Program-made: the position numbers and the translations under genes
In this document: positions 15,139 through 64,000 of the stretch, piece after piece
How positions within the stretch are numbered: the stretch's first letter is position 1
Layout: each line of letters starts with the position of its first letter
The notes under the pieces: generated by a model
Told to the model about the DNA's origin: nothing
Database searches by the model: none
What the model saw: only the letters and a program-made list of their open reading frames with translations
NCBI GenBank assembly: GCA_963796275.1
Contig: CAWCKY010000006.1
Span: 672,001 to 736,000 of the forward strand
Direction of reading: 5' to 3'
DNA from: an uncultured Acidobacteriota bacterium
GTDB lineage: Bacteria > Acidobacteriota > Blastocatellia > RBC074
DNA length: 64,000 bases

Positions 15139-15213
15139 TGTTATTAGTTATTAGTTTTTAGTTATAGTTGCTGAACGAGACAGCTCAGCTAAAAACTAGA
15201 ACTGAAATTAACT
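15139..15213. repeat. Inverted heptamer arrays (TTATTAG/TTTTTAG)n ... (AAAAACT/GAACT)n
   Basis: tgttattagttattagtttttagttatagttgctg ... cagctaaaaactagaactgaaattaact. Confidence 0.6.
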
Positions 15214-15215
15214 GT

Positions 15216-15400
15216 TCTTCGCCGCGTTAGCGGCGGTTGATTGTAGCCGTGGGTTTTAACCCACGGAAGTCTTGAAGGATATTCCCGCGTCGCGTTAGCG
15301 ACGCCTGAATTCAACCGTCGCTGACGCGACGTGAAAAAATCTACCGCCACCGTGGGTTAAAACCCACGGCTACAATCAACCGCCGCTGACGCGGCGAAGA
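15216..15400. mobile_element. REP-doublet (REPIN-like) palindromic element
   Basis: 51-bp terminal inverted repeats (15216-15266/15350-15400, 1 mismatch) containing GTAG-CCGTGGGTTTTAACCCACGG; inner inverted pair CGTCGCGTTAGCGACG/CGTCGCTGACGCGACG. Confidence 0.8.
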
Positions 15401-15837
15401 GGCTTGCCGCTGACGCGGCGAAGAGGCTTGCCGCTGACGCGGCGAAGAGGCTTGCCGCTAACGCGGCGAAGAGGCTTGCCGCTAACGCGGCGAAGAGGCT
15501 TGCCGCTAACGCGGCGAAGAGGCTTGCCGCTAACGCGGCGAAGAGGCTTGCCGCTGACGCGGCGAAGAGGCTTGCCGCTGACGCGGCGAAGAGGCTTGCC
15601 GCTGACGCGGCGATGAGGCTTGCCGCTGACGCGGCGAAGAGGCTTGCCGCTGACGCGGCGATGAGGCTTGCCGCTGACGCGGCGAAGAGGCTTGCCGCTG
15701 ACGCGGCGATGAGGCTTGCCGCTGACGCGGCGAAGAGGCTTGCCGCTGACGCGGCGATGAGGCTTGCCGCTGACGCGGCGAAGAGGCTTGCCGCTGACGC
15801 GGCGAAGAGGCTTGCCGCTGACGCGGCGAAGAGGCTG
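15382..15837. repeat. Tandem array, 19 x 24 bp (GCCGCTGACGCGGCGAAGAGGCTT)
   Basis: Units counted directly; no spacers; units 4-7 carry TAAC, units 10/12/14/16 carry GATG. Confidence 0.97.
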
Positions 15838-17580: not shown

Positions 17581-17641
17581 AGTTTTTAGTATTCAGTTTT
17601 CGGCTGCTGGGTCGGCAACCGAAAACTGAACACTGAAAACT
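17581..17641. repeat. Inverted heptamer-array hairpin in the sulP 5' UTR
   Basis: agtttttagtattcagttttcgg ... ccgaaaactgaacactgaaaact. Confidence 0.65.
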
Positions 17642-32371: not shown

Positions 32372-33379
32372 TTACGACTCAGCAGCCTCGAGTCTGCGCC
32401 TTTGAAATTCATCGAATGTTACGGCGAGCACTATGACTGCGCCGATGACTATCTTTTGGACGAAGGGAGAAATCTGCAGGAGATTTCCGCCGTTCGCCAG
32501 AACGCCCATGATCAATGAACCGATGATCGTGCCGACTACTGTACCCTGGCCGCCGCTCAAGCTGCCGCCGCCTATGACGACGGCGGCGATCACATTCAAT
32601 TCATAGCCCTCACCCGCATTCGGCTGGCCGGTGACGGTTCGCGATGTTTCGATTGCCCCGGCGAGCCCGCTCAGCGTGCCGAGGATCAGGTAATAGAGTA
32701 TCTGGTAGCGCGACACGCGGATGCCTGCGTAACGTGCGGCTTCAATATTGCTCCCCATCGCATAACAGTAGCGGCCGAGCTGGGTATTGCTGAGCGCGAA
32801 ATGCACGATCAGCGCGAGCGCCAGGACGAGCAACAGAGGCAAAGGGATGAAACCCAGTAGATTGCGTTCGGCCAGGTATCCGGCTGCCGCCGGCAGACCG
32901 GCTTCCGCCTGTCCATCGGAGATGTACAATGCCAAACCTCGATAAATCCCCATGGCACCGAGCGTCACAATGAATGCCGGTATTTTGAGCGCTGTAATTG
33001 CTGCTCCATTGAGAAAACCGCAAACGGTCCCGACAGCAAGGCAGACGAGAAATCCCACAATTACCGGCGCACCTCCAGTCATCGCTATTGCGCCGAGCAC
33101 GCCCGACAGCCCGACGATCGAGCCGACCGATAGATCGATCCCACCCGAGACCATCACCATGGTCATCCCCATCGCCATAATCGTGATCACTGCGGTCTGG
33201 CGCGCGATTGCCGCCAGATTGCCGGGTGTGAGGAACTTCGGATCGTTGCCGAGTACGGCAAACTCACAGAGGGGGATGAGCGCACAAAGTGCGATTAAAC
33301 TGATGAAAGGGAGGAAGCGTTTAGCCCAATCACTCAGTTTCCAGTTGCCGGCTTCCAGTTTCCAGTTTTCGGTTTTCAG
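32372..33379 (-). CDS. Sugar ABC transporter permease (RbsC-like); start uncertain
   Basis: GGIDLSVG, FIVTLG, YELNVIAAVVIGG; the frame stays open upstream of the track start (first TM KRFLPFISLIAL) with no ATG/GTG/TTG; CTG at 33379 taken as provisional start. Confidence 0.85.
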   Translation of the reverse strand: MKTENWKLEAGNWKLSDWAKRFLPFISLIALCALIPLCEFAVLGNDPKFLTPGNLAAIARQTAVITIMAMGMTMVMVSGGIDLSVGSIVGLSGVLGAIAMTGGAPVIVGFLVCLAVGTVCGFLNGAAITALKIPAFIVTLGAMGIYRGLALYISDGQAEAGLPAAAGYLAERNLLGFIPLPLLLVLALALIVHFALSNTQLGRYCYAMGSNIEAARYAGIRVSRYQILYYLILGTLSGLAGAIETSRTVTGQPNAGEGYELNVIAAVVIGGGSLSGGQGTVVGTIIGSLIMGVLANGGNLLQISPFVQKIVIGAVIVLAVTFDEFQRRRLEAAES

Positions 33380-33561
33380 TGTTTTCTTCCTAGTTGCGGC
33401 TCGCTACTCACTTTGAGTAGGGTTTTTTTCAATACAGTTCTGCTGGCCACGCGGCAGCAAAACAGTATTTCAAATATCGGTATTCAAGATGAACGACCCG
33501 AGGGTTTCCAGTTCCCGGTTCCAGCTGGTAGATCATGGTGCATCAAAAGGCAAACGGGAAA

Positions 33562-45291: not shown

Positions 45292-45502
45292 TTTTTAGTT
45301 TAGTTTTGCTACGGAAGACTATTGGTATTACGGTCGACTGAAAAACTGAAAACTAAAAACTGAGAACTGAATTGCTCAGCCTCTTCGCCGCGTTAGCGGC
45401 GAAGAGGCTGAGCAGTTACTTTAGTTTTTAGTTTTTAGTTGAGGTCTTGATCGGTAACTAAAAACTAAAAACTAAAAACTAATAACTAATAACTAATAAC
45501 TG
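45290..45502. repeat. Two inverted heptamer-array hairpins flanking a perfect 19-bp-stem palindrome (45373-45414)
   Basis: (AGTTTTT)n...(AAAAACT/AATAACT)n twice; TGCTCAGCCTCTTCGCCGC-GTTA-GCGGCGAAGAGGCTGAGCA. Confidence 0.85.
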
Positions 45503-53561: not shown

Positions 53562-54380
53562 ATGATAAAAGATGTCTTTGCATCGATCTGGGCGGCGGCG
53601 CGCAAGATAATTACCAACTGGGGCGCATTATTAATTTCGTTTCTCCTCTATGCGGCCTTGCAAAGCGTGCTTTATCTGCTCATCACGACGCGCGAAGCGA
53701 CGCTGCTCCAAATATTATTGACTTTCGCTCTGCCGCTGGTCGCGCTCATCCTATTTTTCACACTTCAGGCGTTGGGGCTGAGTTATATACGAATCGGAGT
53801 CGGACCCGGGTACCTGCTGAAGCGCGCATTGAAGGACTGCTGGAAGCTGTTGTTAATGAGCGTTCCCCTGATATTGCTAGCTTGGCTGATCATTTACTCA
53901 ATCGGTACAACCGAAAACCGTCTATTGAATCAGATCTCCGACGCCGCCCAGGCATCGGGGAGGTGGAAGTTGACGGCACTCAACTGGGCTCGCATGTTCC
54001 TGCTCTATTTCGCGCTACCCCTGATCGCGATTCATCTATGGATATCGACACTGCACGAAGGTGTCGGCGCCGCCATCAAAAGCATCGGGCGCAGCGTCGC
54101 TCGCGCATTCTCGCCGCGATCAATGTTAATTTACCTGCTGGTCGTCGCAGTATTCGGTGCCATATCATATTTCCTGTTCTTCACCAAAACGCCGGTTGCC
54201 AATCAATGGGCGGAGTTGTGGTTGTTCGGCACGCGATTGGCCATGGCATTGGTATCCGTATTTCTGGGATGGCTGCTCACTCTGGGATCGCTGGCGGAGT
54301 TGACGGCCCATTGGGCAATGAGCGAATTGGAATCCGTGCCGCGAGCAGTAACCGGCGAGTCTTCAGCGTCGACCGAATAA
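53562..54380 (+). CDS. Multi-pass membrane protein of unknown function
   Basis: About six hydrophobic helices; operon position; stop overlaps the next ATG. Confidence 0.7.
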   Translation: MIKDVFASIWAAARKIITNWGALLISFLLYAALQSVLYLLITTREATLLQILLTFALPLVALILFFTLQALGLSYIRIGVGPGYLLKRALKDCWKLLLMSVPLILLAWLIIYSIGTTENRLLNQISDAAQASGRWKLTALNWARMFLLYFALPLIAIHLWISTLHEGVGAAIKSIGRSVARAFSPRSMLIYLLVVAVFGAISYFLFFTKTPVANQWAELWLFGTRLAMALVSVFLGWLLTLGSLAELTAHWAMSELESVPRAVTGESSASTE

Positions 54381-57121
54381 TGAAACGCGCGATAGGCATC
54401 AAGAAAATAAGTAATGAGCTCAAGGCGCCGGAGGCGCATCCCGCCAGGGGTATCTGCTGGGTTTATATCACAGGATATATCCTGGGCATTTTTCTTCTGT
54501 CATCGTGTGCGAAGCATGAACCTTCACCACCCACATTTTCACGCGATTCCGCGGGTGATAACGATGATTCGCTGCAAAAAGCCGCAACCGACGCACTCGG
54601 TGATCGGGAAGGCGCGGTAATCGTTATCGACCCGAACACCGGTCGATTGCATGCAGTCGTCAACCCACGCCTGGCTTTCGAACAAGCCTTTCCTCCCGGT
54701 TCGGCTATTAAGCCTTTTACGGCGCTCTCCGCCATGCGTGCCGGGTTAGTTGACCGCGGAACTGCCCACTTGTGCCGGACGCGCTATGAACGTGGAGGAT
54801 TTACGATCGTCTGCGCTCACCGGCGAAGCGCCTCGCCATTCGATCTGCCGCATGCCCTGGCATACTCCTGCAACGATTATTTCGCGCAGGTCGGCGAGCG
54901 CCTGAGCCAGGGCACGTTCAATGCGACGCTCAACCGTTTCGGCTTCGGCGCGCGCACCGGCGTGAGCGCCAACGAGGCGGCAGGCGTCCTGCCGCGCGGC
55001 GAATGGCATGTCGCCTCGGCGCTCGGCGAAAGCGAGAGCCTGTTAGTTACGCCGATCCAGTTGATGGCTGCTTACACCGCGCTCGTCAACGGCGGCCGCC
55101 TCTACCGCCCGCAGGTCAGAAACAGGCGGGATGTACTTCCATCGGCTCATCTGAACATCGTCCCGATACACCGCGCCGCACTGATCGAGGGAATGCGCGG
55201 CGCGGTGAAATACGGGACAGCTGGGACAGCCGGGCTCGGGAGATTGCCGTCATATGTTTTCGGCAAGACCGGGACCTCGACATCGAGCAACGGTTTCCGG
55301 ACACAGGGCTGGTTTGTCGGTTTTTTAGCTGATGGTGATTCAGCCGAAGCTCCGCGCGAAGATCAAATCAGGCTCGGCGTACTGGTTTTTCTCAAACGGG
55401 CGCACGGATCACAATGCGCAGAAGTGGCGGGAAAGATTTTCGATTACGGATTGCGGATTGACGGCTTGGGAGAAAAAGATGCGGGAAAGGGGAGTCGGGG
55501 CGATGAAATAAATTCGCCCAGTCGTGCGGTCGCTTCCAGTCCGCCATTCGCTATCCACCATCCTCAAACAGTAAGTGTTCGTTCGATCAGCGAGAAGCTC
55601 ACGCGCGAGCTGCCATTGGAGGAGTACCTCATTGGAGTGCTCGAAGCCGAATCCGGCGTGGAAGTCGAGCCCGAGGCTTTGAAAGCGCAGGCCGTCATCA
55701 GCCGGACTTTCGCGCTGAGGAATACCGGGCGACACGAGCGCGAAGGATACGATTTTTGCAGCACGACGCATTGTCAGCGCTTCGTCTACTCAAAAAAACA
55801 ATCGAACTCAGCGCGCCGTCGCGCCGTCGAAGAGACTATGGGTGAAGTCCTGCAGGATGGGATGGGCCAACTCGTCGACGCATACTTTCATGCTGCCTGC
55901 GGAGGTGTGACGGCGAATATCCGGGCATTGTGGGGCAGTCCCTCGCCTTCTTACCTGCGCGGCGTGCGCGATGATTTCTGCGCGACGATGCCGCATTATC
56001 GCTGGACACAGACTATTCCGGCCGCGCAGTTGGTTAAAGCGTTGAAGAGCGATGCGCGCACGGACATCGGACCGGAGATCAATGCGATTCTCGTCAGGAA
56101 ACGCGACGCGACGGGAAGGGCCGAGTTGCTCGCACTCGAGGGGGTGCGCCGCCGTCTTGTCAGTGGATGGGATTTCAAGATTATCGTCGGTCGCAGCCTG
56201 GGGTGGCAGATGATCAAGAGCTCTCGTTTTGATGTCTCGCGTTCAGGCGGAGACTTCGTCTTCCGCGGCAGCGGCTTCGGTCACGGTTTGGGTTTGTGCC
56301 AGGAAGGCGCCCACGCCATGGCGAGCCGCGGGATGAATTATCGGCAGATCCTCAAGCATTATTTTCCCGGCACACGGGGAATGCGCGACATGCGGAGCAG
56401 ACGAAGCATGCTGGACGGCAAAGACATGCGGGACACGATGAAATTGTTGGTGAGTTTCCCGGGTGGTCCCGTATCCGGGGATGCTGGAATAATCGACCGG
56501 AAATCGCAAAGGGGAAGTTGGAAACTGATAGCGAGCGAGAACTTTCGTGCGAGTTTCTCCCGTGAGGCAGATAGGCGATCGGTTGAAAATGTATTACGGC
56601 TGCTTGAAGCCGCGCGCACAGACCTGTTAAATCGGCTGCAAATGGCGTCGGTCCAATTGCAGGAATCGAAACCATTCGAGGTTGTGATTCACGAAACCAC
56701 GGCAGATTTCATCACCGCTACCGGTCAATCGGGACTGGCCGCCGGAGCGACGCGTGAAAGGCGAATCGAGTTGCAGCCCTTGACCATCCTAAGGAGGCGC
56801 GGCATTCTCGATTCGACCCTGCGTCATGAATTGGCGCACGCTGTCATTGAAGTATTGAGCGATGGCCGCGCGCCCCGCTGGTTGTCGGAAGGTTTGGCGA
56901 TCTACGTCGCGGGTGAAGGCGCAGCGATGTCGCGCATCGCCGAAAAACAGCGGCTAACGCGCGAGGAATTGGAACGGAAGCTATCGCGGCCCGCTCCGGC
57001 AAAGGTCATGCGCGAATTGTACGCGGCGGCATATCGCCAGGTCATAGCTATGATTCGGTCGGAGGGTGAAGATATCGTCTGGCGGCTCGTAGCTGAAGCG
57101 CGTAATTCGTCCCTGGTTTAA
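54380..57121 (+). CDS. Fusion lipoprotein: PBP transpeptidase + SpoIID/LytB + HExxH metallopeptidase-like domain
   Basis: SAIK, SCN and KTG motifs; EEYLIGVLEAE, EALKAQAV, CSTTHCQ, GFGHGLGLCQ, ILKHYFPG; RHELAH..WLSEG; TAATG coupling at 54378-54382. Confidence 0.85.
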   Translation: MKRAIGIKKISNELKAPEAHPARGICWVYITGYILGIFLLSSCAKHEPSPPTFSRDSAGDNDDSLQKAATDALGDREGAVIVIDPNTGRLHAVVNPRLAFEQAFPPGSAIKPFTALSAMRAGLVDRGTAHLCRTRYERGGFTIVCAHRRSASPFDLPHALAYSCNDYFAQVGERLSQGTFNATLNRFGFGARTGVSANEAAGVLPRGEWHVASALGESESLLVTPIQLMAAYTALVNGGRLYRPQVRNRRDVLPSAHLNIVPIHRAALIEGMRGAVKYGTAGTAGLGRLPSYVFGKTGTSTSSNGFRTQGWFVGFLADGDSAEAPREDQIRLGVLVFLKRAHGSQCAEVAGKIFDYGLRIDGLGEKDAGKGSRGDEINSPSRAVASSPPFAIHHPQTVSVRSISEKLTRELPLEEYLIGVLEAESGVEVEPEALKAQAVISRTFALRNTGRHEREGYDFCSTTHCQRFVYSKKQSNSARRRAVEETMGEVLQDGMGQLVDAYFHAACGGVTANIRALWGSPSPSYLRGVRDDFCATMPHYRWTQTIPAAQLVKALKSDARTDIGPEINAILVRKRDATGRAELLALEGVRRRLVSGWDFKIIVGRSLGWQMIKSSRFDVSRSGGDFVFRGSGFGHGLGLCQEGAHAMASRGMNYRQILKHYFPGTRGMRDMRSRRSMLDGKDMRDTMKLLVSFPGGPVSGDAGIIDRKSQRGSWKLIASENFRASFSREADRRSVENVLRLLEAARTDLLNRLQMASVQLQESKPFEVVIHETTADFITATGQSGLAAGATRERRIELQPLTILRRRGILDSTLRHELAHAVIEVLSDGRAPRWLSEGLAIYVAGEGAAMSRIAEKQRLTREELERKLSRPAPAKVMRELYAAAYRQVIAMIRSEGEDIVWRLVAEARNSSLV

Positions 57122-57123
57122 GC

Positions 57124-57333
57124 ATGAATAATACGGATGACGAAGATGAGAATACGCAGACTACCATTAACACGACTGCATACCGCCCGCCCGAGGAGAT
57201 CGCCGCTGACGAGTTGCGCTGCGTGCAGTGCGGTGCTCCCGTGCCGAATATAGCGTGCGGACGGATCATGCCATGTCGATCGTGCGGGTTTCCCTATCCT
57301 TTGGGCGATTGCTCGGATTATGCGGAAAATTGA
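57124..57333 (+). CDS. Small Cys-rich zinc-ribbon-like protein
   Basis: CVQCG...CGRIMPCRSCG...C; starts 2 nt after the preceding stop. Confidence 0.6.
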   Translation: MNNTDDEDENTQTTINTTAYRPPEEIAADELRCVQCGAPVPNIACGRIMPCRSCGFPYPLGDCSDYAEN

Positions 57334-57443
57334 TCCTGCCTGAATTTGTTCTGAGAGATCAGCCAGCAGCGTTCAACAGCCATCAAAAAGCGACCTGATG
57401 CCTCCCGATAAGCTTGACTGAACAATCCTAGCTTTGAAATACA

Positions 57444-57473
57444 TTGACAATCCCACAGCAAGCCGTGTATAAA
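57444..57473 (+). promoter_or_regulatory. Candidate sigma-70 promoter for the cys leader and operon
   Basis: Perfect TTGACA, 18-bp spacer, TATAAA. Confidence 0.5.
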
Positions 57474-57674
57474 GACCCTCTTGTGTAGAAATGAGACGAT
57501 ACTTTCTTGAAAAGTACCGAACAAACATAAAAGAACAGATACTGAAGAACAGATACTGAAGACACGAACACATAATGACAAACTACACAAGATACGAATA
57601 CACGAGTAACGAATATAAGAATATAAGAAGTTACGAAAACAGAAGTAACGAATACAGAAGAAAGCAGGTATAAA

Positions 57675-57821
57675 ATGTCACGATCAACGCGATCAGAAAG
57701 ACTAATGCTCTTACCTGATACAGGGCTTAGTAGACGGCCCGCAGAATTCTCTTTTAGTCTCACCTCGATTCTTTCCTGCCAAATCGCCTGCTCCTGTTGT
57801 TGCTGCTGTTGTTGTCGCTAG
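57675..57821 (+). CDS. Poly-cysteine leader peptide (48 aa), candidate attenuator of the cys operon
   Basis: MSRSTRSERLMLLPDTGLSRRPAEFSFSLTSILSCQIACSCCCCCCCR*, translated by hand; seven consecutive TGT/TGC codons; AGGT before the ATG; 158 nt upstream of sir. Confidence 0.8.
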   Translation: MSRSTRSERLMLLPDTGLSRRPAEFSFSLTSILSCQIACSCCCCCCCR

Positions 57822-57825
57822 CCTC

Positions 57826-57854
57826 TCGATTGCAGTTCATATTTCTGCAATCGA
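57826..57854 (+). promoter_or_regulatory. Hairpin immediately after the leader stop codon
   Basis: Perfect 10-bp stem TCGATTGCAG/CTGCAATCGA, 9-nt loop, no U-tract. Confidence 0.55.
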
Positions 57855-57979
57855 TCTCAATCCCAAAAAATTAACTAACTTAAGTTTGCCGGTTGAATTG
57901 TATTCGATCAGGTGAGCAGGTTCAGAATGCAGCCTTTAATTGGTTGCCGAATCGCGTATTCGCGTTTGCGGAGACGACT

Positions 57980-59566
57980 ATGAAAGAGAACAAGGTCGAA
58001 CGACTGAAAATTGAAAAAGACGGCCTCGACGTGTGGCAGGACATTGAGCGTTATGCGCAAACGGGATTCGACACGATCGATCCCGGCGACATGGATCGCT
58101 TCAAGTGGTATGGCCTTTATACCCAGCGACCCGTGGAAGACGGTCGCTTCATGATGCGCGTAAAGGTGCCCAATGGAATCATCAGCGCCGAGCAGCTCGC
58201 GACTATCGGCTGGCTTTCACAGGTTTATGGACATTCCACCGGAGATATCACGACGCGACAGGGAATTCAGATTCACCATCTGCGCATCGAAGATATTCCG
58301 CATGCCATCAACGAATTGAAGAAGGTCTCCCTAACCACGCAGGAGGCCTGCGGCGATGTCGTACGCAATGTCGTCGGGTGCCCGCTGGCGGGGATCGATG
58401 ACAATGAGATCATCGACGCCTCGCAACTGGTGGATCAGGTTGTAAAACAGTTCATCGACAACCGCGATTTTTCTAACCTGCCGCGCAAATTCAAAATTTC
58501 CATCACCGGCTGCACCCATCAATGCGCGCAACACGAGATCAACGACGTCGGCCTGGTCGCCGTCACCAATAATGATGGGGAGGTCGGGTTCGATCTCTGG
58601 GTCGGCGGCGGACTCGGCGCGAAGCCGTATCTGGCCAAACGTCTCGGGGTCTTCGTCTGGTACGACGAAGCGGTCGAGGTCATCACGCGCATCGTCGAAA
58701 TCTTCCGCGACCACGGTTACCGGGACGACCGGCGCAAGGCGCGTCTGAAGTTTCTGGTAGCCGATTGGGGCGTTGAAAAGTTCCGCGATGAGCTCGAATT
58801 ACGGTTGGGACGCAAGCTCGATGACGGTCCTCAAACAGATGTTCCTGAAATTCAAAAACGCGATCACACAGGCGTCTATGAACAGCGCCAGTATGGGCTG
58901 TATTACATCGGCGCGGCTGTGCTGCGCGGCCGGATTTCAGGCGAGCAGATGAGCGCGGTAGCGGGACTGGCTCGGCGTTATGCGAACGGGCGCATTAGAT
59001 TGACCAACGCACAGAATCTGATCGTGCTCGACGTGCCGGCGGAAAACATCGTTACGCTGAGCAACGAGCTGGCACTGCTCGGTCTCGATCCTTATGGCTC
59101 GCCATTTCGCCGCGGTACGGTCTCGTGCACGGGCCGCCAGTTCTGTAAGCTGGCCGTCGTCGAGACCAAAGAGCGCGCAGAGGAGATCATTCTTTACCTG
59201 GAGCAGACTAACCCGGATTTCAGCGATGACATCCGCATCAGCGTGACCGGCTGCGTCAATTCGTGTGCGCAGTATCAGATCGCCGATATCGGCCTGGTCG
59301 GGGTGAAAGGGCAGGAGAATGGGGCAGAAGTCGACTTTTTCCAGGTCCACCTCGGCGGGCATCTGGGGCAGGGAGCGGCGTTCGGGAGAAAAATCTCCAA
59401 ACGCGTCCGGGTCGAGGAGACCAAATTTTATATCGAGCGGGTTCTCCGCACTTACCGTTCGCAGCGGCGGGCGGGAGAACTGTTCTATCAGTTCATCGCG
59501 CGCCACGATGCGAGAGCATTGGAGATGATCGATGAGCTGGAGAGCGTAGAGATGGCCGCTGTATAA
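57980..59566 (+). CDS. sir: Ferredoxin-dependent sulfite (nitrite/sulfite family) reductase
   Basis: KWYGLYTQR, ITTRQ, LPRKFK, CTGRQFC, TGCVNSC siroheme/4Fe-4S ligands; sulfite specificity inferred from operon context. Confidence 0.88.
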   Translation: MKENKVERLKIEKDGLDVWQDIERYAQTGFDTIDPGDMDRFKWYGLYTQRPVEDGRFMMRVKVPNGIISAEQLATIGWLSQVYGHSTGDITTRQGIQIHHLRIEDIPHAINELKKVSLTTQEACGDVVRNVVGCPLAGIDDNEIIDASQLVDQVVKQFIDNRDFSNLPRKFKISITGCTHQCAQHEINDVGLVAVTNNDGEVGFDLWVGGGLGAKPYLAKRLGVFVWYDEAVEVITRIVEIFRDHGYRDDRRKARLKFLVADWGVEKFRDELELRLGRKLDDGPQTDVPEIQKRDHTGVYEQRQYGLYYIGAAVLRGRISGEQMSAVAGLARRYANGRIRLTNAQNLIVLDVPAENIVTLSNELALLGLDPYGSPFRRGTVSCTGRQFCKLAVVETKERAEEIILYLEQTNPDFSDDIRISVTGCVNSCAQYQIADIGLVGVKGQENGAEVDFFQVHLGGHLGQGAAFGRKISKRVRVEETKFYIERVLRTYRSQRRAGELFYQFIARHDARALEMIDELESVEMAAV

Positions 59567-59692
59567 GTCTGAATTACAGCAGCCAATGTTCTTCGTGAGC
59601 GTTTTGTTTATGGCGATCATTGATGAGACATAGTTTGTAACCCTGCTTGTCACATCCGAAAACAAGCAGAAGAAGGAGGGAAAGATACTGAA

Positions 59693-60856
59693 ATGAGTTT
59701 AATTGATCCACACGGGGGGAAACTGATTGACCGGGAATTGCGCGGGGCAGAGCGCGAAGCGCTGCTGCGAGCATCGGTGAAAATGCCGAGTATTTCGGTC
59801 AACGCACGTGCTGAGGCCGACCTTGAGCTTATCGCATCCGGCGCGCTATCGCCGCTCGAAGGATTTATGGGCGAAGCGGATTACGTTTCGGTCAGAGACA
59901 ACCGGCATCTGGCGAACGGATTGGCCTGGACGATACCCGTCACCTTGTCGGCCACCGATGATGTGAGCGGAACCCTGCACACCGGCGATGATGTTGCTCT
60001 GCGCTCGCGCGATGGGCGATTGGTCGCCGTGCTGCATCTCGCCGAGATTTTCAAATATGACAAAGCGCTCGAAGCCCAGCAGGTGTACCGGACTACCGAA
60101 GAGAAGCATCCAGGCGTGAACGCGATTTATGGGCAGGGCGATTATCTGCTCGGAGGCCGCGTCAGTCTGATCGAAGCGCCGAACCGCCAGGAATTCGGGC
60201 CTTATCGTTTTTCGCCGCGGGAGTTGCGAGCGCTCTTCACCGAGCGGGGTTGGAAGAGCGTCGTCGCCTTTCAGACGCGCAACCCGGTGCATCGGGCGCA
60301 CGAATATATTCAGAAATGCGCGCTTGAGACCGTCGACGGGTTGCTGTTGCACCCCCTCGTGGGCGAGACGAAAGCCGATGATATCCCGGCGCCCGTTCGG
60401 ATGCGGGCATATGAAGTGATCATCGAGCATTACTACCCGGTCTCGCGTACTCAACTGGCCGTGCTGCCGGCTGCGATGCGCTATGCCGGGCCGCGTGAAG
60501 CCATCTTTCACGCGATCATCCGCCAGAACTATGGTTGCTCGCATTTCATCGTCGGGCGCGATCACGCGGGGGTGGGCAATTATTACGGAACATATGACGC
60601 GCAGCGAATCTTCGGCGATTTCGCACCGGGCGAGTTGAAAATCACCCCGATGTTTTTCGACAACACCTTCTTCTGCCGCAAATGCGATGGAATGGCTTCG
60701 GCCAAAACCTGCCCGCACGATCCGGACAATCACGTCAGTTTGAGCGGCACCAAAGTCCGCGAAATGCTGGCGCGCGGAGAAGTACCTCCGTCTGAATTCA
60801 CGAGGCCGGAAGTGGCATCGGTTTTGATCGACGCGCTGAAGGTCGTTGGAGTGTAG
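59693..60856 (+). CDS. sat: Sulfate adenylyltransferase
   Basis: FQTRNPVHRAHE, MRYAGPREA, FIVGRDHAG, SGTKVR. Confidence 0.97.
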   Translation: MSLIDPHGGKLIDRELRGAEREALLRASVKMPSISVNARAEADLELIASGALSPLEGFMGEADYVSVRDNRHLANGLAWTIPVTLSATDDVSGTLHTGDDVALRSRDGRLVAVLHLAEIFKYDKALEAQQVYRTTEEKHPGVNAIYGQGDYLLGGRVSLIEAPNRQEFGPYRFSPRELRALFTERGWKSVVAFQTRNPVHRAHEYIQKCALETVDGLLLHPLVGETKADDIPAPVRMRAYEVIIEHYYPVSRTQLAVLPAAMRYAGPREAIFHAIIRQNYGCSHFIVGRDHAGVGNYYGTYDAQRIFGDFAPGELKITPMFFDNTFFCRKCDGMASAKTCPHDPDNHVSLSGTKVREMLARGEVPPSEFTRPEVASVLIDALKVVGV

Positions 60857-60857
60857 T

Positions 60858-60947
60858 CAGTTTACAGTTTACAGTTTTCAGTTCTTAGCTCTCAGATGCG
60901 AACTAAAAACTAAAAACTGCAAACTGAAAACTGCAAACTGAAAACCG
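60858..60947. repeat. Inverted heptamer-array hairpin between sat and tRNA-Cys
   Basis: (CAGTTTA/CAGTTTT)n ... (AAAAACT/CAAACTG/AAAACTG)n. Confidence 0.8.
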
Positions 60948-60952
60948 AATGG

Positions 60953-61024
60953 GGCGGTGTAGCCAAGTGGTAAGGCGAAGGTCTGCAAAACCTTTATTCG
61001 CCGGTTCGATTCCGGCCGCCGCCT
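60953..61024 (+). tRNA. tRNA-Cys (GCA), CCA not encoded
   Basis: Acceptor GGCGGTG/CGCCGCC with U discriminator; D arm GCC-AAGTGGTAA-GGC; anticodon arm AAGGT-CTGCAAA-ACCTT; T arm GCCGG-TTCGATT-CCGGC. Confidence 0.96.
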
Positions 61025-61051
61025 CTCATTAAGGAATTAAGGAAAGGATCA

Positions 61052-61618
61052 ATGTCAAAAGGTTTTACGCTTTGGTTTACCGGATTATCAGGGGCAGGGA
61101 AGACGACGCTGACAAATGCGATTTTGCCGCATCTGCTCGAGCGAGGCGTCAGGGCCGAAGTTCTTGACGGGGATGAGGTGCGCACCAACCTGAGCAAAGG
61201 GCTCGGGTTTTCCAAAGAAGATCGCGATACCAACATCCGGCGGATCGGTTACGTCGCCCGCTTGCTCTCCCGCAATGGCGTGGGGGTGATTGCGGCGGCA
61301 ATCTCGCCTTACCGCGAAATCCGCGACGAGGTGCGGCGTTCCATCCAGTCAGATGGCGCGGCTTTTGTCGAAATTTATGTCACTGCGTCGCTGGAGGCAT
61401 TGATAGAACGCGACGTGAAGGGGCTGTACAAGAAAGCTCTGGCGGGTGAGATAAAACAGTTCACCGGCGTAAGCGATCCTTACGAACAGCCGAACAATCC
61501 TGAGCTGGTCATCGAAAGCGATAAGGAGACAGTCGCCGAGAGCGCGACGAAGATCATCGTCACTCTCGAGAAGCTCGGGTTGCTGGCATCGAATCAGAAA
61601 TTGGGAGCGATGATATGA
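61052..61618 (+). CDS. cysC: Adenylyl-sulfate kinase
   Basis: [32 protein letters not shown]. Confidence 0.97.
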
Positions 61619-62427
61619 AACGGGGAAAGGTTTATCTGGTTGGCGCGGGGCCGGGCGATCCCGGTCTACTGACGCTCAAGGCGAGAGATCTTATCGCCGC
61701 AGCCGATTGCATCATCTACGACTATCTGGTCAACCCGAAGATTCTGGAACACGCGGGGCCGCGCGCGGAATTTATCTACGTCGGCAAACGCGGGGTGGAG
61801 AGCTCGTGGACGCAGGCTGAGATCAATCGCCTGCTGGTTGAAAAGGCCGGGGAGCATTCAGTAATCGTCCGGCTCAAAGGCGGCGATCCTTTCATTTTCG
61901 GGCGCGGCGGGGAGGAGGCGGAGATGCTGGTCGATTCGGGAGTGGAGTGGGAGGTCGTCCCGGGAGTGACTGCCGGATCATCGGTCGCCGCATACGCGGG
62001 GATACCCATCACGCATCGCGGGTTGAGCAGTTCGGTCGCTTTTGTGACGGGCCACGAAGACCCGGCGAAACCGCAATCGGCGATCCGGTGGGAGCATTTG
62101 GCTAACGGCGTCGATACGCTCGTCTTTTTTATGGGCGTGGCGCGCGCCCGGGAGATCGCGGAACGGCTCGTGGAACACGGCCGCAGTTCTGAAACGCCCG
62201 TCGCTGTAGTCCGCTGGGGAACTTACGATCACCAGGAGACTTACATAACCACGCTCGCAAACCTGGCGGACCTGACCGCCCGCGAGCAAGTCGCTTCGCC
62301 CGCGCTTATCGTGGTTGGAGATGTGGTTAAGCTTCATGAGAAGTTGCGGTGGTTTGAGGAACTGAAAGAGGTTCCGTTCGCTCATCGCAACTTCCCTAAT
62401 CCATTTTTGGAGGCGCTGGCGGGATAA
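61615..62427 (+). CDS. cobA: Uroporphyrinogen-III C-methyltransferase
   Basis: [32 protein letters not shown]. Confidence 0.95.
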
Positions 62428-62428
62428 G

Positions 62429-62470
62429 CGCACACGGGGCACGGGGCACGGGGCACGGGGGCAAACGGGC
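62429..62470. repeat. GCACGGG heptamer tandem repeat
   Basis: cacacggggcacggggcacggggcacgggggcaaacggg. Confidence 0.7.
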
Positions 62471-62565
62471 GACAGGGAAGAATGACCGAGATCAAACGCG
62501 ATTTTTCGCCTGCCGTCTGAATATCTCCTGAGGCTTCTTCGCCCGGTCACAAAATCTGTAATCGA

Positions 62566-63216
62566 ATGCGCTACTACCCTATTTATCTCGACCTGAAAGA
62601 TCGCGCCGTCCTGGTAGTCGGTGGAGGGGCGATCGCTGAAAGCAAAGCGCAGCAACTTAACGAGGCGGGCGCGCGGGTTCGAGTTGTAAGTCCAACGCTT
62701 ACACCGCTGCTTTCCGGATGGGCGGCGCGCGGAGTGATCGAGCATGTTCCCGGCCGCTTCAAAGAGGATGATTTGAAAGATGTTTATCTTGTCATCAGTG
62801 CCGCGGATGATCAGGCGGTAAACGAAGAGGTGGCGCGACTCGCCGCGGAGCTTGGATTGTTGATAAACGTCGTCGATCAGCCCCCGTTGTGCAATTTCAT
62901 TACTCCGGCACTGGTGACGCGCGGCGATCTGCAGGTCAGCGTATCGACCGGAGGAGGCAGCCCATCGCTCGCGCAGCGCGTTAAGCGGGAAGTCGCCGCA
63001 TCGATCGGCGAAGAATACGGCGAGTTGCTCAAAATTGCCGCCGAGATGAGGGTTGATGCGAAACAACGAATACCGGATTTTGAGAGACGGCGCAAAGTTT
63101 TACACGAGTTTGTCGAATCAGAAGCGCTGGATCTGATCCGCGCGGGAAAATACGAAGAGGCTCGTGAGCTCGCGCGTTCGTTATTGGAAGCCAACGGCGT
63201 GCGGACGGTAAGGTAG
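62566..63216 (+). CDS. sirC: Precorrin-2 dehydrogenase / sirohydrochlorin ferrochelatase (CysG N-terminal/SirC-like)
   Basis: YYPIYLDL, VVGGGAIA, NVVDQP..C.F..PA, STGGGSP. Confidence 0.88.
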   Translation: MRYYPIYLDLKDRAVLVVGGGAIAESKAQQLNEAGARVRVVSPTLTPLLSGWAARGVIEHVPGRFKEDDLKDVYLVISAADDQAVNEEVARLAAELGLLINVVDQPPLCNFITPALVTRGDLQVSVSTGGGSPSLAQRVKREVAASIGEEYGELLKIAAEMRVDAKQRIPDFERRRKVLHEFVESEALDLIRAGKYEEARELARSLLEANGVRTVR

Positions 63217-63286
63217 GTTGTCCAACGCGGAGAGCTTCCCTGAAGCAAATACATTAATCACGATATTTTCAGCGGAGGAGGAGAGA

Positions 63287-63991
63287 ATGATCGATAGCCT
63301 GGAAGAGCTGGCGGAAGTTGAAATAGACCAACTGGCGCAGCGTTTTGAATCGAGCAGCGTTGAAGAAATCCTCGAATGGGCGGTCGACCGATTCGCGCCG
63401 AGTCTGGTAATGACATCGAACTTCGGCGCCGAAGGCGTGGTCGTCATCGATAAGCTGGCGCGCGTCGCGCCGCACGTCCCCGTCATTTATCTTGAAACCG
63501 GGTTCCAGTTCGGCGAGACGGACCAGCTCAAAGAGAGAATTCGCGAACGCTACCGGATTAATATCGTCGAACAACGCGCGGAGTTGAGCGTCGTCGAACA
63601 AAACCGGCTCTATGGCAAGAAGCTTTACGAGCGCGATCCGGACCTGTGTTGTCGCATACGCAAGGTCGAACCGCTCAAGCAGGCGCTCAGTGGATACGAT
63701 GGCTGGATCGCGGCGCTGCGGCGGGATCAGTCGCCGTCGCGGGCGAACATCGGCGTGGTCGAATGGAACGCGCGCCATGGGCTGGTAAAAATCCATCCTC
63801 TTGCCGCCTGGACGCGCCGCGATGTATGGGATTACATAATGAGCAATAAACTGCCTTATCATCCGCTTTATGACGATGGTTATGCGAGCATCGGTTGCAA
63901 ACCCTGCACGCGCCGAGTGGTTGCCGGCGCGCATGAACGAAGCGGTCGGTGGGAGGGGCAGGGCAAGCTGGAGTGCGGTATTCATCTCTGA
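63287..63991 (+). CDS. cysH: APS/PAPS reductase (Fe-S type)
   Basis: CCRIRKVEPL, SIGCKPCT, RSGRW, ECGIH; SD GGAGGAGG before ATG 63287 (alternative TTG at 63218). Confidence 0.93.
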   Translation: MIDSLEELAEVEIDQLAQRFESSSVEEILEWAVDRFAPSLVMTSNFGAEGVVVIDKLARVAPHVPVIYLETGFQFGETDQLKERIRERYRINIVEQRAELSVVEQNRLYGKKLYERDPDLCCRIRKVEPLKQALSGYDGWIAALRRDQSPSRANIGVVEWNARHGLVKIHPLAAWTRRDVWDYIMSNKLPYHPLYDDGYASIGCKPCTRRVVAGAHERSGRWEGQGKLECGIHL

Positions 63992-64000
63992 GATGCAAAA

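Follow-up and report, generated by a model that had tools for sequence, protein, structure and literature searches.

A gene for tRNA-Cys is embedded in the cysteine biosynthesis operon of an uncultured Acidobacteriota bacterium of the class Blastocatellia, between the genes for sulfate adenylyltransferase (sat) and adenosine phosphosulfate (APS) kinase (cysC). The window, meaning the whole 64-kb stretch that was analysed (contig CAWCKY010000006.1, positions 672,001–736,000), holds a single tRNA gene, this one, at 60953–61024 on the plus strand. The gene is an extra copy. Its cloverleaf fold and its position are conserved in relatives, and it is tightly packed between its neighbours. The favoured explanation, with a probability of about 0.55, is that this functional extra copy is transcribed as part of the operon, that RNase P and RNase Z cut it free, and that CCA is then added. 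Induction of the pathway would thereby increase tRNA-Cys supply as well, with feedback on the poly-Cys sensors, and extra tRNA-Cys would probably be made when cysteine is short. The case for co-transcription is geometric, and the processing, the dependence on a leader peptide and the physiological effect are proposed from sequence.

Two programs agree on the gene. ARAGORN reports tRNA-Cys(gca) at 60953–61025 on the plus strand, and the Rfam tRNA model (RF00005) matches the 72 nt at 60953–61024 over its full length (model positions 1–71), with 69.5 bits against a gathering score of 29 (E = 4.7e-14). Both bear out the original prediction, which had placed a canonical tRNA-Cys(GCA) between sat and cysC, 27 nt from the cysC ATG. 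The 7-nt anticodon loop, CUGCAAA, carries GCA together with U33, the discriminator is U73, and one wobble pair, U6-G67, is present. U73 and the GCA anticodon are identity elements for cysteinyl-tRNA synthetase (CysRS). The gene lies 96 nt 3′ of the sat stop codon and its U73 lies 27 nt 5′ of the cysC ATG, all on the plus strand. The 27-nt trailer (61025–61051, plus strand) is at the same time the cysC 5′ untranslated region; it contains AAGGA-type repeats that resemble Shine–Dalgarno (SD) sequences, including an array of ATTAAGGA detected by Tandem Repeats Finder (TRF) at 61028–61044. Within 57000–64000, the tRNA is the only Rfam match above threshold.

The original prediction saw neither a promoter nor a terminator belonging to the tRNA gene, and consensus scans of its plus-strand flanks agree: no sigma70-like promoter and no hairpin followed by a T-run was found there. 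A separate hexamer scan of the plus strand from 57900 to 64000 likewise gave no promoter site scoring at least 10/12. The sole plus-strand site that reaches this score within 57300–64000 is at 57444–57473, ahead of the operon: a candidate sigma70-type promoter (TTGACA, 18 nt, TATAAA) with 11/12 matches. A general scan for promoters and terminators missed it, as that scan accepts only T as the sixth base of the −10 hexamer; on its own the general scan is uninformative, with 3 promoter-like sites where 3.1 are expected and 6 terminator-like sites where 7.6 are expected. A crude test for embedded tRNA genes (same-strand open reading frames (ORFs) of at least 150 amino acids, ending no more than 150 nt upstream and starting no more than 100 nt downstream) returned two of the 47 tRNA genes of the genome, the window tRNA-Cys and one tRNA-Gln.

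Copy number sets tRNA-Cys apart in this organism. The genome of the window (G000) comprises 9.46 Mb in 7 contigs, with 54% G+C, 94.7% completeness and 5.2% contamination. ARAGORN finds 47 tRNA genes in the whole genome: 42 anticodon species occur once, Met-CAT twice and Cys-GCA three times, so Cys(GCA) is the sole tRNA present in three copies. The count answers a question attached to the original prediction, whether the window gene is the only tRNA-Cys or an additional one: it is additional. The remaining two copies encode CCA. The window copy does not, its discriminator being followed by CTCATT. That much had been predicted correctly, but the trait is not a notable one, since CCA is encoded in 23 of the 47 tRNA genes and missing from approximately 24 (by a loose test), and 21 of 25 orthologues of the window gene encode it. 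Absence of CCA was rejected as a special feature for this reason. The genome encodes one cysS, as well as RNase P RNA, RNase Z, RNase E/G, Rho and a nucleotidyltransferase of the CCA-adding type. Because there are three Cys copies, a leader would sense pooled tRNA-Cys. The proposal that the leader senses a tRNA made from its own transcript thus holds for the kind of tRNA and fails for the product of this gene alone.

The position of the gene is conserved across several genera. In a first sample of 41 genomes, 31 of them with CysC, tRNA-Cys stands just upstream of cysC at 7 of the 30 cysC loci scanned. A wider census of the family (class Blastocatellia) covered 87 genomes, the window's included, of which 67 have a close CysC. 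In 25 of these 67, spread over five genera, a tRNA-Cys gene lies on the same strand within 400 nt upstream of cysC, and the sat–tRNA–cysC order, whose absence from relatives would have spoken against the original prediction, is thus retained. By genus the arrangement occurs in 3/3 (g1), 8/8 (g5), 1/1 (g3), 11/22 (g12) and, among genomes with cysC, 2/7 (g2); in the same census no genome of g16, g6, g15, g17, g11, g13, g7 or g9 has tRNA-Cys adjacent to cysC. Genus g3 is represented by G004, an unpublished assembly on which no conclusion rests. At least two tRNA-Cys genes are present in 24 of the 25 genomes that have the operon copy; in G019 that copy falls under the E-value cut-off in one hit table and is present in another. 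The exception is G004, with one tRNA-Cys hit in a genome only 70% complete. By comparison, 32 of the 42 cysC genomes that lack the adjacent tRNA have at most one tRNA-Cys hit. As copy number is higher where the operon copy is present, the latter is a supernumerary gene.

The cloverleaf of the operon tRNA-Cys is under selection. In the stems of 14 operon copies, 97.3% of cells are standard pairs and five pairs show double changes, a covariation score reached by none of 500 shuffles. The GCA anticodon is kept in 25/25 operon copies, U73 in 24/25 and an encoded CCA in 21/25, and U33 is kept in all inspected junction copies except that of G060. Most operon copies share a G26/A27 signature that is absent from the housekeeping copies. 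On the cysC side, all but two of the 25 genomes (G019 and G060) have a spacer of 24–76 nt between the tRNA and cysC. Between sat and the tRNA the distance varies from −10 to 197 nt, and 12 of the 25 genomes have at most 20 nt there. In two members of the window's own genus, G001 and G002, nucleotides 8–10 of the tRNA form the TAG stop codon of sat. Given spacers this short, cysC would hardly be transcribed without the tRNA, which is the main argument for co-transcription, and an independent transcription unit would find hardly any space in so tight an arrangement.

A tree built on Sat and CysC from 20 loci places all 13 tRNA-bearing rows in one group of 15 (support 81/80, poorly resolved inside), and the five rows outside this group all lack the tRNA. 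The fewest changes that account for the distribution are three, for example one gain and two losses. Beyond the family, one genome per species was scanned for 185,579 species with a pattern made of the anticodon and T arms of tRNA-Cys followed within 70–100 nt by a P-loop word, which reaches only spacings like those seen at the window locus. Among the 111 stretches returned, 10 hold sat–tRNA–cysC, all 74–86% identical to the window proteins; the other 101 were discarded as tRNA-Cys genes followed by chance P-loop-like words. Five of the 10 come from the same assemblies as census genomes. Titles are available for seven, of which six are Blastocatellia or Blastocatellales and one is a Heliomicrobium metagenome-assembled genome; the stretch with this last title groups with Blastocatellia rows in the tree, and the label is treated as doubtful. 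Within the reach of the pattern, the arrangement is limited to this clade of Blastocatellia.

The operon opens with a poly-Cys leader and continues, on one strand, as sir–sat–tRNA–cysC–cobA–sirC–cysH (names from Pfam and NCBIfam). The leader, which the original prediction had relied upon, is real: a short open reading frame (sORF) of 48 codons plus stop at 57675–57821 (plus strand) that ends CSCCCCCCCR. It contains 10 Cys in all, with seven consecutive Cys codons at 57795–57815, and the run ends one codon before the stop. In relatives, 12 of 16 loci have a poly-Cys sORF of 44–69 codons on the operon strand with 4–8 Cys codons at the very end. Within the first sample it is present at all 6 tRNA-bearing loci of relatives, and at all 7 tRNA-bearing loci with enough upstream DNA. 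The commonest gene order in relatives is leader–sat–tRNA–cysC. Approximately 200 nt separate the end of the predicted promoter (57473) from the sORF ATG (57675), so that, on this promoter prediction, the sORF is not leaderless. The interval holds a purine- and A-rich 5′ leader (57480–57674, plus strand) with TRF arrays at 57531–57562, 57611–57629 and 57626–57660, and a comparable purine-rich stretch precedes the Cys-rich sORF at a second locus of the genome, described below.

How the leader might exert control is suggested by its predicted folds. A 10-bp hairpin follows the leader stop (57826–57854, plus strand), but it is succeeded by CAATCCC and an A-run; with no U-run after it, and no plus-strand terminator predicted between the leader and sir, it does not qualify as a classical intrinsic terminator. 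The target of the window leader, which lacks a U-tract terminator, could be translation of the first gene and not transcription. In the minimum free energy (MFE) fold (z −3.14), an 8-bp pairing joins 57786–57793, the Ala-Cys-Ser codons bordering the Cys run on its 5′ side, to 57914–57921 (plus strand), a segment just 5′ of the probable sir start (ATG 57927), which would be consistent with sequestration of the SD sequence. In MFE folds of relatives a similar pairing forms between CUCC-UGUUGU and ACAAC...GGAG, the latter at the first gene.

A second extra tRNA-Cys gene of the same genome is arranged in a related way. It lies at approximately 1,419,027 of contig C6, about 420 nt past sbp–cysT–cysW and before a gene for a CarboxypepD_reg/outer-membrane barrel protein. 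Directly upstream of it (locus L047) is a Cys-rich sORF ending CCCCPCSCLCLGLQRIEPDSRE, followed by an intrinsic terminator. An sORF with 7–10 Cys and the C-terminal motif E-[PT]-D-[LS]-R-E, again with a terminator, also precedes the orthologous tRNA in G104, G085 and G106; in G081, whose contig begins there, the final sORF codons and the terminator are visible. These sORF/terminator/tRNA-Cys loci are L047:2150-2602 (contig C6 of G000, approximately 1418650–1419101), L208:2860-3115, L189:1280-1546, L209:115-405 and L182:1-202. The terminator stem is paired in 60/60 cells with one compensatory pair, although with five sequences only this is a weak control, 59 of 500 shuffles being as good. Folding without the 3′ arm of the terminator lets its 5′ arm pair with the final sORF codons in four of the five sequences. 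The layout of the second locus is that of a classical attenuator set before a tRNA-Cys gene. Its Cys-rich leader and terminator lend independent support to the feedback interpretation of the window operon.

The tRNA at the second locus has G33 and is the sole one of the 47 tRNAs of its genome without U33, a nucleotide that is near-universal in decoding tRNAs. It belongs to a paralogous type, here called type B (the operon copies are type A), recognized by the D-loop AAAUGGGAA. At position 33, eight type-B copies from seven genomes carry G, whereas one genome has C there and three have U; GCA is always kept and U73 is found in most copies. Type-B sites are L047:2528-2602, L162:2691-2765, L182:130-202, L189:1474-1546, L193:2593-2667, L206:3023-3097, L186:1231-1304, L214:3078-3148 and L207:3061-3135. 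The type-B gene is often trailed by a second, more diverged tRNA-Cys-like gene.

Further tRNA-Cys genes occur at other sulfur loci of the family. Some genomes carry tRNA-Cys 3′ of sat but distant from cysC. In 12 family genomes a gene of the DUF1684 family is closely followed by tRNA-Cys, and in 11 of the 12 no more than 60 nt lie between the tRNA and the point where the protein match ends; most of these modules have a poly-Cys sORF upstream, and three include a beta-carbonic-anhydrase-like gene. The loci are L183:5165-6195, L184:2236-4229, L162:1618-2765, L192, L193, L206, L207, L210–L212, L214 and L215. DUF1684 has two structural-genomics entries, both named 'uncharacterized protein', and no DUF1684 gene was found in the window's genome. 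Counting inspected loci only, a tRNA-Cys gene lies within a sulfur or cysteine locus in at least 36 of the 87 family genomes. Three Cys-rich leader sORFs were found in the window's genome. The third (L216:681-3937, minus strand, contig C6 approximately 389480–392736) has 33 codons, ends in six Cys, and directly precedes genes with PALP (cysteine-synthase-like), JAB and fused ThiS–ThiF–rhodanese domains. These genes make up a thiocarboxylate-type cysteine route behind a similar leader.

A mechanism can be proposed in which these elements form a loop. (i) Transcription would begin at 57444–57473 and proceed through the leader sORF, sir, sat, the tRNA, cysC, cobA, sirC and cysH. (ii) RNase P would cut at the 5′ end of the tRNA and RNase Z after U73, and the CCA-adding enzyme would complete this CCA-less copy. 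(iii) Release of the tRNA would split the mRNA into a sir–sat piece and a piece extending from cysC to cysH. The upstream segment matches the one predicted originally; the distal segment, given there as cysC–cysH, is actually cysC–cobA (SUMT type)–sirC–cysH. (iv) When cysteine is scarce, ribosomes would stall on the Cys run and the operon would be expressed, yielding more tRNA-Cys alongside the pathway enzymes. (v) More tRNA-Cys would help the single CysRS to capture scarce cysteine for translation. (vi) Once cysteine is available again, the larger tRNA-Cys pool would give more Cys-tRNA and faster translation of all Cys-rich leader sORFs. Faster leader translation would act as negative feedback, bringing a quicker shut-off.

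Several observations weigh against this mechanism. A search for sequencing runs gave nine, none of them recorded as RNA. We know of no proof that extra uncharged tRNA is beneficial during starvation. The predicted duplexes between Cys tract and SD sequence are no better than chance: when the Cys-tract region was compared with the 38 nt before the start of the first gene in nine genomes, 18–238 of 300 mononucleotide shuffles equalled their energies. The leader may control translation of the first gene only, in which case tRNA output would be linked to it solely via polarity or mRNA decay; this would weaken the feedback loop unless polarity follows. The sigma70 consensus may not suit Acidobacteria, and an internal promoter in the 3′ end of sat is conceivable. 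The junction is also looser in two genomes, G019 having a tRNA–cysC gap of 325 nt that includes a hairpin with a T-run, and G060 a gap of 212 nt and a tRNA with G33 and C73. Two members of the tRNA-bearing tree group, G003 and G017, are without the tRNA. Finally, the family adjacencies were tallied by eye from two tables, although all 25 were then confirmed on the sequence.

The sat–tRNA spacer bears on the alternatives considered next. In the window it is occupied by a long imperfect hairpin (60857–60941, plus strand) built of inverted heptamer arrays, CAGTTTA ×3.7 facing AACTGAA ×7 by TRF, with a fold energy of −27.4 kcal/mol (z −5.6). The spacer (60857–60952) gives 864 blastn-short matches throughout the genome, and Rfam returns only sub-threshold chance matches to microRNAs; as a dedicated element the hairpin was rejected, since it belongs to a genome-wide heptamer repeat. 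Spacers of at least 54 nt fold into a long hairpin in 11 of 13 relatives (z −2.7 to −10.2), built of unrelated repeats, and the hairpin is absent from genomes with short sat–tRNA spacers. These hairpins are read as repeat DNA settling in a permissive site. They could possibly also serve to cap the 3′ end of the sir–sat fragment once RNase P has cut. Tandem heptamer arrays (AACTGAA, CAGTTTC, AACTAAA, ATTTTAA and others) are dispersed in the intergenic DNA of the window, often as inverted pairs forming long hairpins, at 2088–2198, 15140–15169, 17617–17641, 33334–33380, 45337–45501 and 60858–60949; we take them to resemble the heptamer STRR repeats of cyanobacteria. Several genomes have, beside tRNA-Cys genes, a conserved element of roughly 50 nt that includes CCGTAGCTGGTGCTTAGTTGATGG; after it come a hairpin and a 3′ arm of partial complementarity. 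The element is found at L047:2400-2527, between tRNA and cysC in L036, at L162:2820-2910 and in the sat–tRNA spacers of L203 and L204. In G000 it occurs once elsewhere (contig C3, approximately 1114443–1114492, L049). Rfam gives no match to it, and it could be a small repeat resembling a miniature inverted-repeat transposable element (MITE).

The conserved cloverleaf might owe its retention to cutting rather than to the tRNA produced. It would then act as punctuation, selected so that RNase P and RNase Z cleave between sat and cysC and uncouple the stability and translation of the two halves, with the released tRNA as a by-product. The position exactly at the sat/cysC junction in every case is in keeping with this, as is the presence of genes for RNases P, Z and E/G, and in G001 and G002, where the sat stop lies inside the tRNA, cleavage and an intact sat message are mutually exclusive. 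At related sulfur loci, paralogs have lost U33 but retain the cloverleaf, the G060 copy has G33 and C73, a second tRNA-like gene of G018 has G73, and the long hairpins in 11 of the 13 genomes with spacers of at least 54 nt might cap the upstream fragment. Yet those hairpins are copies of genome-wide repeats and are missing at short spacers. A cleavage signal would not need U73 in 24/25, GCA in 25/25, CCA in 21/25 and U33 in every inspected copy but that of G060, and the operon copy accompanies a real rise in the number of tRNA-Cys genes. Punctuation as the selected function is on balance rather unlikely; punctuation and tRNA supply are, moreover, compatible with each other. Less probable again is that a duplicated tRNA-Cys gene is a passenger in a permissive site, kept as mildly useful or neutral and expressed from its own promoter or by constitutive read-through with no link to cysteine. 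The same intergenic sites do gather junk-like repeats (the heptamer arrays and the MITE-like element), and some members of the clade have lost the tRNA. A passenger would not be expected to recur after sat, after DUF1684 behind poly-Cys sORFs and after cysT–cysW behind a Cys-rich leader and terminator, in at least 36 of 87 genomes; nor would it account for Cys alone among tRNAs being multiplied in this way in the window's genome. Spacers of −10 to 20 nt leave no intergenic space for a promoter, and the fold is under purifying selection.

A different role for the product has precedents in the cell-wall tRNA-Gly of Staphylococcus and tRNA-Other of Bacillus cereus, which are non-ribosomal or regulatory tRNAs. 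CysRS-charged paralogs could similarly carry cysteine to a reaction outside translation, for example one involving the DUF1684 protein, or act as regulatory tRNAs. This idea suits type B better, as type B retains GCA and mostly U73 while having G (eight copies, seven genomes), C (one genome) or U (three genomes) at position 33, and tRNA-Cys follows a DUF1684 gene in 12 genomes. For the window gene it is very improbable: the type-A tRNA is fully canonical, its genome lacks DUF1684, a family without known function, and no transferase gene is found in the window operon. A broader version of the favoured supply-and-feedback mechanism is offered tentatively, at lower odds than that mechanism itself. 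The supply of tRNA-Cys might be a regulated output of a cysteine-starvation regulon whose tRNA paralogs are wired into loci with Cys-rich leaders, type A between sat and cysC and type B behind a leader and terminator, closing an autoregulatory loop. Type B might perhaps be a poorly decoding cysteine carrier or decoy, possibly acting with DUF1684 or the outer-membrane protein.

The components of the favoured mechanism are known separately. Mixed tRNA–mRNA operons of Escherichia coli include thrU–tyrU–glyT–thrT–tufB, metY–nusA–infB and secG–leuU. As in the window, tRNA and protein genes lie on one strand; there they form one unit from which RNase P and other nucleases free the tRNA, while for the window co-transcription is predicted. 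In E. coli, housekeeping tRNAs open or close translation-factor operons that have nothing to do with the amino acid concerned, whereas the window has a spare cognate tRNA in the middle of an operon for its own amino acid, behind a leader predicted to sense the same aminoacyl-tRNA. In the classical leader-peptide attenuators (trp, his, thr, leu), a ribosome on regulatory codons reports the level of cognate aminoacyl-tRNA, and hisR mutants with less tRNA-His reportedly derepress the his operon. Because the amount of tRNA sets the switch point of an attenuator, an operon-borne tRNA would be a feedback element. The second locus of the window's genome shares with these attenuators a Cys-rich sORF, alternative pairing and a hairpin with a U-run; the window leader differs in having no U-tract terminator. 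Classical attenuators control enzymes or synthetases, whereas here the sensed tRNA is itself in the putatively controlled unit.

Poly-Cys sORFs of mycobacteria have been shown experimentally to be cysteine sensors and translational attenuators of a 'Cys ribulon', as described in excerpts of one report (bioRxiv 10.1101/834739). Those excerpts and the present genome agree in a C-terminal Cys run before cysteine or sulfur genes, in several such loci per genome (three in G000) and in a predicted pairing of Cys tract and SD sequence, although here the duplex energies do not surpass those of shuffled controls. The phylum is another one, however, and the mycobacterial sORF is described as leaderless, whereas that of the window begins about 200 nt past its predicted promoter. 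In the same excerpts tRNA-Cys appears as the sensed molecule and never as an operon member. Animal mitochondrial transcripts are punctuated by tRNAs. Two accounts bear on this model (PMC5716156, PMC5474008). Likenesses are a tRNA between ORFs with little or no spacer, mRNA ends defined by RNase P and RNase Z (in the window by prediction), and an upstream stop that overlaps the tRNA, as in G001 and G002. The difference is that the bacterial operon has a single extra tRNA, cognate to the product of the pathway, and not a genome-wide mode of processing.

Mixed tRNA–mRNA operons, leader-peptide attenuation, poly-Cys sORFs and tRNA punctuation are thus all established. What was not found in print, and is considered new, is a cognate tRNA gene within a leader-controlled biosynthetic operon of its own amino acid. 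A literature search found nothing on cysteine or sulfate operons that contain tRNA-Cys, nor on leader-controlled operons with a cognate tRNA gene inside them; the tables and supplements of bioRxiv 10.1101/834739 fell outside this search and might bear on the claim. Attenuation measures charged tRNA, and the amount of tRNA is usually taken as constant; here, in 25 genomes, the cognate tRNA gene is part of the unit proposed to be regulated. Should transcription data confirm the proposal, this would be a natural case in which an amino acid pathway and the supply of its tRNA are co-induced and both act back on one ribosomal sensor. Three questions become open to experiment. One is how the dosage of a tRNA determines where an attenuator switches; another is whether cells short of an amino acid increase one specific tRNA so as to compete for it; the third is whether bacteria partition operon mRNA by tRNA excision. 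The tRNA-Cys paralogs without U33 and the uncharacterized DUF1684 family are, in addition, candidates for new sulfur-related biology in abundant soil acidobacteria.

The protein genes of the window operon, all on the plus strand, were assigned as follows. The first, listed as an ORF at 57893–59566 with a probable start at 57927, belongs to the sulfite/nitrite reductase haemoprotein family (NIR_SIR, NIR_SIR_ferr); its best NCBIfam matches are to models of the NirA/sir type, under their cut-offs, and the name sir is assigned because of the operon context. Downstream of it, sat (59693–60856) matches Pfam ATP-sulfurylase and PUA_2 as well as NCBIfam NF003166 (555 bits against a cut-off of 387), and cysC (61052–61618) matches Pfam APS_kinase with 207 bits. 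A tetrapyrrole methylase of the cobA/SUMT type (61615–62427; Pfam TP_methylase), in the sirohaem branch, is followed by a precorrin-2 dehydrogenase/ferrochelatase of the sirC/CysG-N type (62566–63216; Pfam NAD_binding_7, Sirohm_synth_M, CysG_dimeriser). The last gene, cysH (63218–63991), encodes an APS or phosphoadenosine phosphosulfate reductase (Pfam PAPS_reduct; NCBIfam NF002537, 263.7 bits against a cut-off of 154).

Beyond the end of the window, some 1.2 kb past cysH, contig C6 encodes an ABC-transporter permease of the CysT/CysW/ModB kind (737233–738012). At least five relatives have a similar permease match, with 34–37% identity to the query, a few kilobases past cysC in the direction of cysH, and the operon may extend into the transporter gene. 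Just upstream of the operon, at 53882–57121, a long ORF joins a penicillin-binding-protein transpeptidase domain to a SpoIID domain. Farther away in the window, at 15382–15836, the 24-nt unit GCCGCTGACGCGGCGAAGAGGCTT is repeated in 19 tandem copies with 97% identity.

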